The position numbers were made by a program, and so were the translations under genes. A DNA stretch of 32,910 bases from Octopus sinensis (lineage: Eukaryota), in assembly GCF_006345805.1 (NCBI RefSeq), contig NW_021834063.1, forward strand, positions 1-32,910. The letters run 5' to 3'. Position 1 is the first letter of the stretch. Each line of letters begins with the position of its first letter. The notes beneath the pieces are model-generated. The model worked only from the letters and a program-made list of their open reading frames with translations. It searched no databases and had not been told where the DNA came from. This document shows positions 21,734-23,479 of the stretch, piece by piece.

Positions 21734-22130
21734 GTTTTGTTGAATTTTCTGCTGCTTTAAATAAAGTATATATATATATAGATCAATAAATGGTAGGATT
21801 GTGTTGACCGCACGTGGAGAAATGATAAGCAAGGAAAAATTGTAAAAAGGCAGAATGCTAAATTGAAAGAAAATTTTTATGAAAATGGGTGTATGGAAAA
21901 AGTTTTTGAAAAATTGATAAAATATATATATATATATATATATTAATTCAAACGGTTTTCGTCATAATGTGACTTTTCAAGAATTGTAAAGAGAAAAATA
22001 TTTTTTTAAATATGAGCAGGTGGGAAAAACGAAAATTACATTGTATTTTGCAAAAAAATAATAATAAATATATACAAAAATTAAAAAAATAGGTACTCCG
22101 ATGCATTGTAAAGTCTTTGTGTACCTTTGT

Positions 22131-22723
22131 GTATTGTGAAAAAATTATATGGTTAATGGACAATATGTCCAATTTTTCGGCATATTTGGCATTAGAATTT
22201 TTTCCTTTGCCCTCATTTATGAATTGTTTATAAATTTAACCGTTAAAGGTATTTTTTAATATGCTGGCCATTGATAACATTTTTTTCGAGAAAATATTTT
22301 TTTTCGAAAAGAATTTTATCCTCACATTTGATATAAATTTAAGCATTCACTTCCGAGCTAACTAACTCACTCTGTGACAGCCTCAGTTCAAATCGCACGT
22401 GCCTCGAATGGGCTGGAGTATTTCTATTTTAGATGTATTTGGGGTACTTAGTTGTGCCCATGACTTAGTGTTTGCTTCTTCCATGGGTGCGAGTAAGTAT
22501 CTCATTTATTTCTTTTGCCACATGTATCACTGACGAAGAGAGGGCTCTTAGTAGCTAACTCTGAAATTGGTCCGATATGGTAATAATGGAATTTTTTAGA
22601 AATTTCTGTCAGCCTTTTTTCGAGTAGCGTGCGTATTGTGAAAAAATTATATGGTTGATGGACAATATGTCCAATTTTTCGGCATATTTGGCATTAGAAT
22701 TTTTTCCTTTGCCCTCATTTATG

Positions 22724-22727
<4 letters not shown>
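22131..22727 (+). repeat. 95-bp direct repeat pair with a 502-bp period enclosing a hammerhead motif
   Basis: 22131-22225 and 22633-22727 differ at one position. The second copy runs into (TA)n. Confidence 0.85.
22524..22578 (+). ncRNA. Type-I hammerhead ribozyme motif with extended stem II
   Basis: GTATCA-CTGACGA-AGAG(AG GGCT CTTAGT AGCT AA)CTCT-GAA-ATTGGT-C-CGATAT. Canonical core and GUC site; one mismatch at the base of stem I; stem III is a degenerate palindrome. Confidence 0.7.
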
Positions 22728-22799
<72 letters not shown>

Positions 22800-22966
22800 T
22801 ATATATCGATGCATACATACATGCATGCATTACATACAAACATACATATACGCAGTGAAACTTTTTAGAGGAGTATAAATGTATATATGTCTATAGTGTG
22901 TGTGTACGTGCCTGTGTGTGTGTGTGTGTGTGTTTGTGTGTGCGTCTATATGCTCGCGCATATATA

Positions 22967-23479
22967 AAATAATAAATAAATGCGCCCTTTTAAAGCCTAG
23001 CCAGGCTCATGGGCCCGATTTTCCGGTTTCTATTGCGTATGTGTTCCCCCCAACTGGACGGGACGCCAGTCCATTGCAGCGTTACTCATTTTTGCCAGCT
23101 GAGTGGACAGGAAGCAACGGGAAATGAAGTGTTTTGCTCAAGAACACAACGCATCGCCCGGTCCAGGAATCGAAACCACAATCTTACGATCATGGTGCTG
23201 ACACCCTTGCCACTAAACCACGCGCCTCCACAAAATAAATGCGCCCTTTTAACGCCTAGCCAGGCTCATGAACCCGGTTTCTATGGCGTATGTGTTTCCC
23301 ACCTGGACGGGACGCCAGTCCATTGCAGCGTTACTCATTTTTGCCAGCTGAGTGGACTGGAGCAACGGGAAATGAAGTGTCTTGCTCAAGAACACAACGC
23401 ATCGCCCGGTCTAGGAATCGAAACCACAATCTTACGATCATGATGCTGACACCCTAACCACTAAGCCACGCGCCTCCAC
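22967..23479 (-). mobile_element. Two head-to-tail tRNA-derived SINEs, family B (22967-23231 and 23232-23479)
   Basis: Each starts GTGGAGGCGCGTGG(C/T)TTAGTGG on the minus strand and ends in TTTA-type tails. The pair begins ~30 nt after the exon-1 donor. Confidence 0.88.

Follow-up and report, generated by a model that had tools for sequence, protein, structure and literature searches.

A 502-nt terminally redundant unit around a single hammerhead motif in the genome of Octopus sinensis raises the question of what kind of element it is and which machinery placed it there. The unit lies at 22131-22727 of the window, which is the whole stretch of DNA analysed here (32,910 nt, contig NW_021834063.1), and a sequence-only reading had taken it for either a retrozyme or a Penelope pseudo-LTR. 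The two labels were found to describe one thing, while the random circular permutation and the 22572/22573 cut proposed with them did not hold. Very probably, the 600-bp stretch is a 5'-truncated copy of a non-LTR retrozyme, likely inserted into an (AT)n tract by a Neptune-type reverse transcriptase (RT)/GIY-YIG endonuclease. Animal retrozymes were defined by Cervera and de la Pena 2020 (PMC7229834) and in the preprint of Li, Clavereau and Pollet, and in the available text of both their mobilisation by Penelope-like elements (PLEs) is so far proposed from co-occurrence and pseudo-LTR similarity. The retrozyme class is already known; what this locus adds is a revised position for the predicted cut and a junction with a PLE family that can be named.

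The retrozyme arm and its dispersed family

The window copy is a plus-strand arm of 1.2 units (22128-22727) that is truncated at its 5' end. Positions 22131-22225 and 22633-22727 share 94 of their 95 bases (A at 22155 against G at 22657) with a period of 502, in agreement with the direct repeat reported earlier, and the match reaches back to 22128 at the cost of one further mismatch. The first repeat copy (22128-22225) is a partial upstream unit, and the second (22633-22727) terminates at the shorter of two fixed 3' ends. These ends are separated by a ~108-nt "tail", an internal copy of which occupies 22226-22335 and folds into a 16-bp hairpin at about 22278-22313; the long end of other copies falls at about 22331-22335 on window coordinates. 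An (AT)n tract at 22727-22797, to the right of the arm, is the putative priming target. GC content is 0.305 across 22001-23000. The absence of an ORF was confirmed, the longest stop-to-stop frame being 63 aa and the longest Met-started frame 41 aa, and no RT and GIY-YIG ORF was present when the unit was examined for frames. With one hammerhead, the window copy falls outside the two-hammerhead definition of an active copy given in a 2026 preprint (bioRxiv 10.64898/2026.07.22.740005). Since a single hammerhead could not release unit-length RNA, this copy is likely a dead product.

The window arm is one 5'-truncated member of a dispersed, protein-free repeat family. The stretch yielded 3169 first-look candidates in genome G000 (2.7 Gb), and the best scored copies were ~91-97% identical. 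Hundreds of copies fall into at least four subfamilies (A-D), with ~80% identity for subfamilies B and C. Exact-pattern counts in G000 were 475, 378, 206 and 148 (the last for subfamily D), as compared with 0 in controls. Seamless tandem periods of ~440-505 nt are found in the family, including multi-unit arrays at L010, L011 and L016. The redundancy is therefore not unique to this locus, the outcome that had been named as telling against the original proposal; it recurs at many loci. It is extremely improbable that the 95-bp repeat arose by tandem duplication at this locus or reflects an assembly artefact. Although a few loci (L141, L148 and L165) were duplicated locally along with their flanks, redundancy with varied 5' breakpoints and constant 3' ends was found at dozens of unrelated loci, and this recurrence rules out local duplication as the source of the redundancy in the family.

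Arm ends were mapped in 60 loci picked solely by a 23-mer near the end of the repeat; out of its 378 matches, the loci taken were the first on contigs C1-C3 that are unique. Of 107 arms, 50 ended at the short site, where the window copy ends, 48 ended at a long site ~108 nt beyond it and 9 ended elsewhere, while the 5' ends of the mapped arms were scattered evenly. Nine of the 107 arms were longer than 502 nt, and 98 were shorter than one unit. By a strict test, (AT)n came next in 44 of the 50 arms with a short end and in 36 of the 48 with a long end; the long-end alignments already extend into the tract. The random circular permutation that had been expected from reverse transcription round a circular RNA was not borne out, as 98 of the 107 arms stop at either of two fixed sites; tandem forms (arrays and arms longer than one unit) were found, but not random permutation. 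Given two fixed 3' ends and even 5' ends, the permutation is one-sided, and the 95-bp repeat therefore marks the point at which copying stopped, 98 nt into the second unit. Inverted head-to-head pairs numbered 37, of which 7 had one unclassified end, and 28 of the 30 classifiable pairs united ends of different kinds, one short and one long (p=8.7e-7). The idea that an arm stalls at the start site used by its partner was considered and rejected, since 9 of 100 arms halt no more than 11 nt from the long site, which is roughly the background level.

Fixed two-site 3' ends, (AT)n targets, variable 5' ends and short-long pairing constitute a PLE footprint, and this footprint supports assignment of the family to the metazoan non-LTR retrozymes with a Penelope-type partial-tandem architecture. 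In the mechanism that we propose, a Neptune-type enzyme would nick both strands of the (AT)n tract, and reverse transcription would start at two internal sites of the retrozyme RNA. The template would hold more than one unit seamlessly, either as a hammerhead-made circle or as an uncleaved homogeneous multimer, and copying beyond one unit would generate the 95-bp redundancy. The autonomous PLEs of the genome carry the same end footprint, which points to Neptune-type machinery as the likely mobiliser.

As described for metazoan non-LTR retrozymes, the family consists of non-coding tandem units of a few hundred bases with low GC, each with a predicted type I hammerhead, ranges from monomers to multimers and co-occurs with PLEs. 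The unit of ~500 nt compares with 150-450 bp in PMC7229834 and lies within the 51-972 bp of the preprint. Two-site ends, twin arms and a PLE-arm fusion were seen here and are not described for retrozymes in the available text of these two sources. Circles are known for related retrozymes (PMC7229834); for the present family a circular template is plausible. Partial tandems, an inverted truncated arm, a one-ended tail of 30-40 bp and a (TA)n bias are reported for PLEs in PMC8557442, and two internal RT start sites with extension of both target strands are reported for Poseidon PAc in PMC11167929. The family shares with EN+ PLEs of the Neptune/Nematis type the partial tandems, the inverted 5'-truncated arm and the one-ended tail (PMC8557442), as well as two internal start sites, AT-rich or (TA)n targets and a hammerhead upstream of the start sites (PMC11167929, PMC4209133); it differs from them in having no ORF and in a tail of ~108 nt rather than 30-40. 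Chlamys PLEs such as MRC1 are likewise non-autonomous, with pseudo-LTRs and head-to-tail multimers, but resemble their autonomous partner at the 3' end, unlike the retrozyme, and the clade is described as being without canonical hammerheads, whereas one is predicted here (PMC8557442). Plant LTR retrozymes are also non-coding, hammerhead-bearing and terminally redundant, but are described with a type III hammerhead, true LTRs, PBS/PPT, 4-bp target duplications and a Gypsy partner (preprint, PMC7229834). That architecture is absent here, where the topology is type I and repeat length differs from copy to copy.

Cut register of the predicted hammerhead

A type I hammerhead is predicted on the plus strand at 22525-22582 from motif and covariation. 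Its stem I pairs 22525-22529 with 22578-22582, followed by the core CUGACGA (22530-22536), stem II with an A10.1-U11.1 closing pair (22537-22562), the GAAA strand (22563-22566) and a 4-bp stem III that pairs 22566-22569 with 22573-22576; the predicted cut falls between A22577 and U22578. In the window copy, T22568 results in a G-U pair in stem III, where 57 of 59 copies have C. A degenerate hammerhead pattern matched G000 exactly at 475 places and the reversed control at none. No hammerhead was among the 98 Rfam matches at E<=1 across the window, and thus the ribozyme call rests on motif and covariation.

Both core strands noted in the sequence-only reading, CUGACGA and GAAA, are present, but its GUC cleavage triplet and 22572/22573 junction were not upheld. 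With the cut at 22572/22573, 67.9% of the stem I cells of 27 distinct natural copies are paired, as are 74.1% of those in stem III; the A15.1-U16.1 pair of this register fails in 14 of the 27. The register cutting after A22577 pairs 95.1% and 99.1% of these cells, respectively, for an overall 97.1% as compared with 83.6%. Four pairs of the 22577/22578 register were double-changed across the 27 copies, with examples in both stems I and III: the first stem I pair is A-U in 13 and G-C in 10, and a stem III pair is U-A in 14 and C-G in 10, counts that reflect few inherited changes rather than many independent events. The GUC triplet is missing from subfamily D, while the 22577/22578 register fits all four subfamilies. 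On subfamilies A-C alone the GUC register fitted 98.4% (2.1-1.1 pair omitted), and only subfamily D separated the registers; a dead ribozyme in subfamily D was discarded as an explanation because the second register fits that subfamily. The cut is accordingly predicted to lie at 22577/22578, five bases beyond the earlier proposal, in a hammerhead that has been maintained across ~20% subfamily divergence.

The predicted 4-bp stem III sets the family apart from other metazoan non-LTR retrozymes and is unlike the 1-2-bp, dimer-dependent type in PMC4209133; the retrozyme monomer may therefore cleave by itself. In the 2026 preprint (bioRxiv 10.64898/2026.07.22.740005), 8 of 9 predicted Xenopus dimers failed to cleave. 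Stem II closes with A10.1-U11.1 or G-U across copies; G-C is usual at 10.1-11.1 (PMC4209133). The unit folds better than its shuffles (z -6.6), and free folding favours pairings other than the hammerhead. An intron around the ribozyme (GT at 22494, AG at 22612) was rejected, as the AG belongs to a minority haplotype (16 of 77 loci) and the splice joint was not seen in four contig sets.

Template of the insertion

Redundant segments within an insertion shared minor alleles in 60/8299 (tandem) and 88/12016 (inverted) comparisons, as compared with 0.067% and 0.062% between loci, an approximately 11-fold difference. Sequence difference was 3.0% within an insertion and 4.1-4.2% between loci. At five common haplotype sites, picked after the minor-allele result was known and with CpG-type sites excluded, discordance was seen in none of 24 comparisons between tandem segments and in none of 71 between inverted ones, where 7.6 and 22.3 were expected; this test left out 8 loci that carry local duplications or long arrays. 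There was thus one template lineage per insertion. In the first 100 of 206 places with unit positions 110-129, 60 of the 100 arms holding these positions continue into the adjoining unit, and copying is not blocked at any position. A shared haplotype with free crossing of the unit boundary fits a circle and also fits a homogeneous multimeric transcript.

On balance, we lean slightly towards a hammerhead-made circle as the template, a plausible inference from the small number of long arrays and from the circular form of relatives elsewhere. It is quite possible instead that the template was an uncleaved linear multimer transcribed from a homogeneous tandem locus, with the hammerhead merely freeing the transcript or dispensable. 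The multi-unit arrays at L010, L011 and L016 are compatible with such a source, as are same-strand hammerhead pairs one unit apart (2/100 and 3/100 among the matches listed), and unprocessed RNA was the main substrate in PMC11167929, where cleavage was not required for insertion. Arm ends are also not concentrated at the cut: 6 of 224 arms begin at unit positions 352-358, with 4.1 expected (p=0.23), and neither candidate cut shows a 5'-end pile-up among these arms, so the DNA holds no sign of cleaved templates. However, new copies mostly fall short of a full unit (98 of 107), which would make it difficult to replenish long masters. The ribozyme has moreover been kept, with compensatory changes and a stem III predicted to be monomer-competent, and related retrozymes accumulate as circles (PMC7229834), both of which argue against the multimer. 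Family sequence was present in assembled contigs of X1, X5, X8 and X9, runs not on record as RNA, which are uninformative on strand, ends and circularity.

Several individual loci displayed further features. The arm at L039 (1081-1777) is subfamily A-like in its upstream part and closer to B in its 3' part, possibly a template switch or an intermediate subfamily. At L158, L203 and L026, a deletion of 15-21 nt (15-16 nt at L158 and L203), lying between short direct repeats, distinguishes the internal tail of an insertion from its terminal one. This suggests slippage while copying and is a point against the mechanism proposed above. Insertions and their flanks are duplicated locally at L141, L148, L165, L002 and L023 with 0.4-1.3 kb spacing, several of them difference-free; these are recent events or assembly artefacts.

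Penelope-like elements and the fusion at 22127/22128

The earlier reader overlooked the 5' neighbour of the retrozyme arm, at 21780-22127, where another, autonomous element with the opposite orientation has its end. Repeat search, tblastn and alignment identify this minus-strand segment as the 5'-truncated 3' end (pseudo-LTR, long "tail" end) of a Neptune-type PLE. Its 348 bp are fused 5'-to-5' with the retrozyme arm, the alignment reaching the junction with 0 gap, and its 3' end meets the left (TA)n tract (21767-21780). The neighbour repeat yielded 1747 first-look candidates in G000, of which 40 were scored, and the family marker 71 exact matches. A Neptune-type ORF remnant lies upstream of the repeat in 18 of 29 other loci by tblastn, mostly 50-60% like L092. 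At L287, a C-terminal GIY-YIG follows a CX2-5CxxC linker and the pseudo-LTR carries a predicted hammerhead; the RVT_1 match of the family (E 1.3e-6) is just under the curated cut-off. The family is thus designated "Neptune-type" by domain order and motif, a putative assignment in that the CX2-5CxxC linker also occurs in Nematis. Other copies likewise end in (AT)n, and long and short ends are paired in 12 of 13 classifiable inverted pairs. A motif scan predicted a variant type I hammerhead with a U3/A8 core, a 5-bp stem I and a 4-bp stem II on the minus strand at 21945-21985, where the window copy is missing one G in loop III. This motif has 40 identical matches in family loci, some of them overlapping, and is not favoured by free folding (z 0.51).

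Autonomous PLEs of the genome include family N1 (L092), with an ORF of RT, CX4CX2C and GIY-YIG in 3979-bp tandem units. Copies related to L092 have two alternative ends, separated by ~42 nt and both leading into (AT)n, and the cleavage triplet of N1 is variable. Three autonomous Neptune-type families, seen in the window neighbour and in L092, L252, L272-L274 and relatives, have hammerheads with a U3/A8 core, except for one U3/G8 lineage; the retrozyme core is C3/G8, whereas these three local families are mostly U3/A8. Neptune-type pseudo-LTRs are more variable (77-98%) than the ORF (95-97%). L092 (G000:C1665:152500-162400) and L097 belong to a young Neptune-type family with 8504 candidates and frames of 811-923 codons, in which an overlapping upstream frame of ~490 codons suggests a two-ORF or frameshifted layout. 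A second young family, with frames of ~781 codons, is found at L258, L259 and L271-L281; its 3' UTR contains repeated CCAAT- and TGACGTC-like motifs, which we presume may be a pseudo-LTR promoter.

No DNA similarity was detected between the retrozyme unit and the sampled autonomous pseudo-LTRs (150 of 8504 and 150 of 5029 PLE candidates scored), and the local alignment scores were reached by 41 and 75 of 200 shuffles. PLE descent and partner identity are therefore without homology support. Pseudo-LTR homology to a host PLE is reported for a minority of preprint families; here it was found to none of the families in an incomplete PLE sample. That the unit is the solo pseudo-LTR of an unsampled autonomous PLE is nonetheless quite improbable. 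Its end architecture is that of PLE pseudo-LTRs, and the scored candidates are a small part of the total, but what lies upstream of the unit is another unit, an inverted arm or host DNA, and seamless 500-nt tandems have no space for an ORF. Among the retrozyme loci searched by tblastn, 3 gave ORF remnants, which may not be fused co-linearly; at L047 the remnant is at least 500 nt off.

The fusion unit lies between two (TA)n tracts, with the Neptune-type arm at its long end and the retrozyme arm at its short end. Among 87 retrozyme 5' ends without a retrozyme partner, the window's alone abuts an inverted pseudo-LTR of the sampled PLE families. A second fusion with the same PLE family was found at L366, 1 of 59 other loci (60 loci cover the 71 marker matches), where at 1945-2125 (G000:C3721) a 1.7-kb Neptune-type arm at its short end meets head-to-head a subfamily D retrozyme arm that is 91-96% like its 39 nearest scored relatives. 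This junction combines two short ends and is scrambled, with a 9-nt microhomology and a small inversion. No allelic copy and no empty site for the window fusion were found in the assembly, and no retrozyme-PLE fusion is described in the titles or abstracts listed by a largely open-access literature search.

Both arms could derive from one double-primed insertion in which the PLE's own RNA was copied at one active site and a retrozyme RNA at the other, a possibility that we take seriously without thinking it probable. The 5'-to-5' contact of the arms with zero gap argues for it, as do the (TA)n that borders each outer end, the long-short pairing known from homologous pairs (28 of 30 for the retrozyme, 12 of 13 for the PLE family), the similar private-allele loads of the two arms (6/298 and 6/494, Fisher p=0.38), the recurrence with the same PLE family at L366, and the fact that 0 of the 87 unpaired ends abut another sampled PLE family in this manner. 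Judged roughly from the density of (AT)n tracts, the probability that each case arose by chance is a few per cent, but PLEs cluster in common (AT)n tracts (L283, L254), which makes this figure too low. The chances are about even that the arms were inserted separately into a single (TA)n tract and that the second arrival joined its 5' end to the element already there. Homologous twin arms are always haplotype-concordant (0 of 71 discordant), so RNA mixing is not the rule, just 1 of 87 unpaired ends shows a fusion, and L366 violates the long-short rule with a microhomology-type junction. Further, 16 of the 87 unpaired 5' ends pass the strict (AT)n-flank test, which indicates that tract loss at the 5' side is common. 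Separate insertions, however, presuppose that an unlikely event took place two times and on both occasions involved one small PLE family (71 exact marker matches), and the arm ages are not detectably different. An assembly mis-join at the junction is unlikely; both fusions are on small contigs, and the window junction is seen at assembly level only.

As a more specific and rather doubtful form of the joint insertion, one Penelope-type complex may have copied its own Neptune-type transcript and a retrozyme circle, one per target strand, and joined them head-to-head. If true, this reading would prove directly from the genome which retrotransposon moves an animal retrozyme with which it has no sequence in common, and PLE insertion arms would be primed independently, at one long and one short start site. 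One such insertion would name the mobilising enzyme family, and the fusion may record the enzyme that likely pasted the retrozyme into the genome. Start sites are mapped for the family, its predicted cut site is revised and a candidate enzyme family that includes young copies has been named, which makes the idea accessible to the existing in vitro PLE assay.

The likely site of the composite insertion is the intron following a claudin-like coding exon, which occupies 23511-23733 on the minus strand, ends at a GT donor (Pfam Claudin_2, E 5.8e-7) and is single copy in G000. Between them, 22974-23479 contain two tandem 248-bp copies of a common interspersed repeat that we take to be probably a SINE. 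Elsewhere in the window are what we assume to be decayed LINE-type ORF fragments, at 30961-32363 and 11082-11703 on the minus strand and at 4870-5126 on the plus strand.
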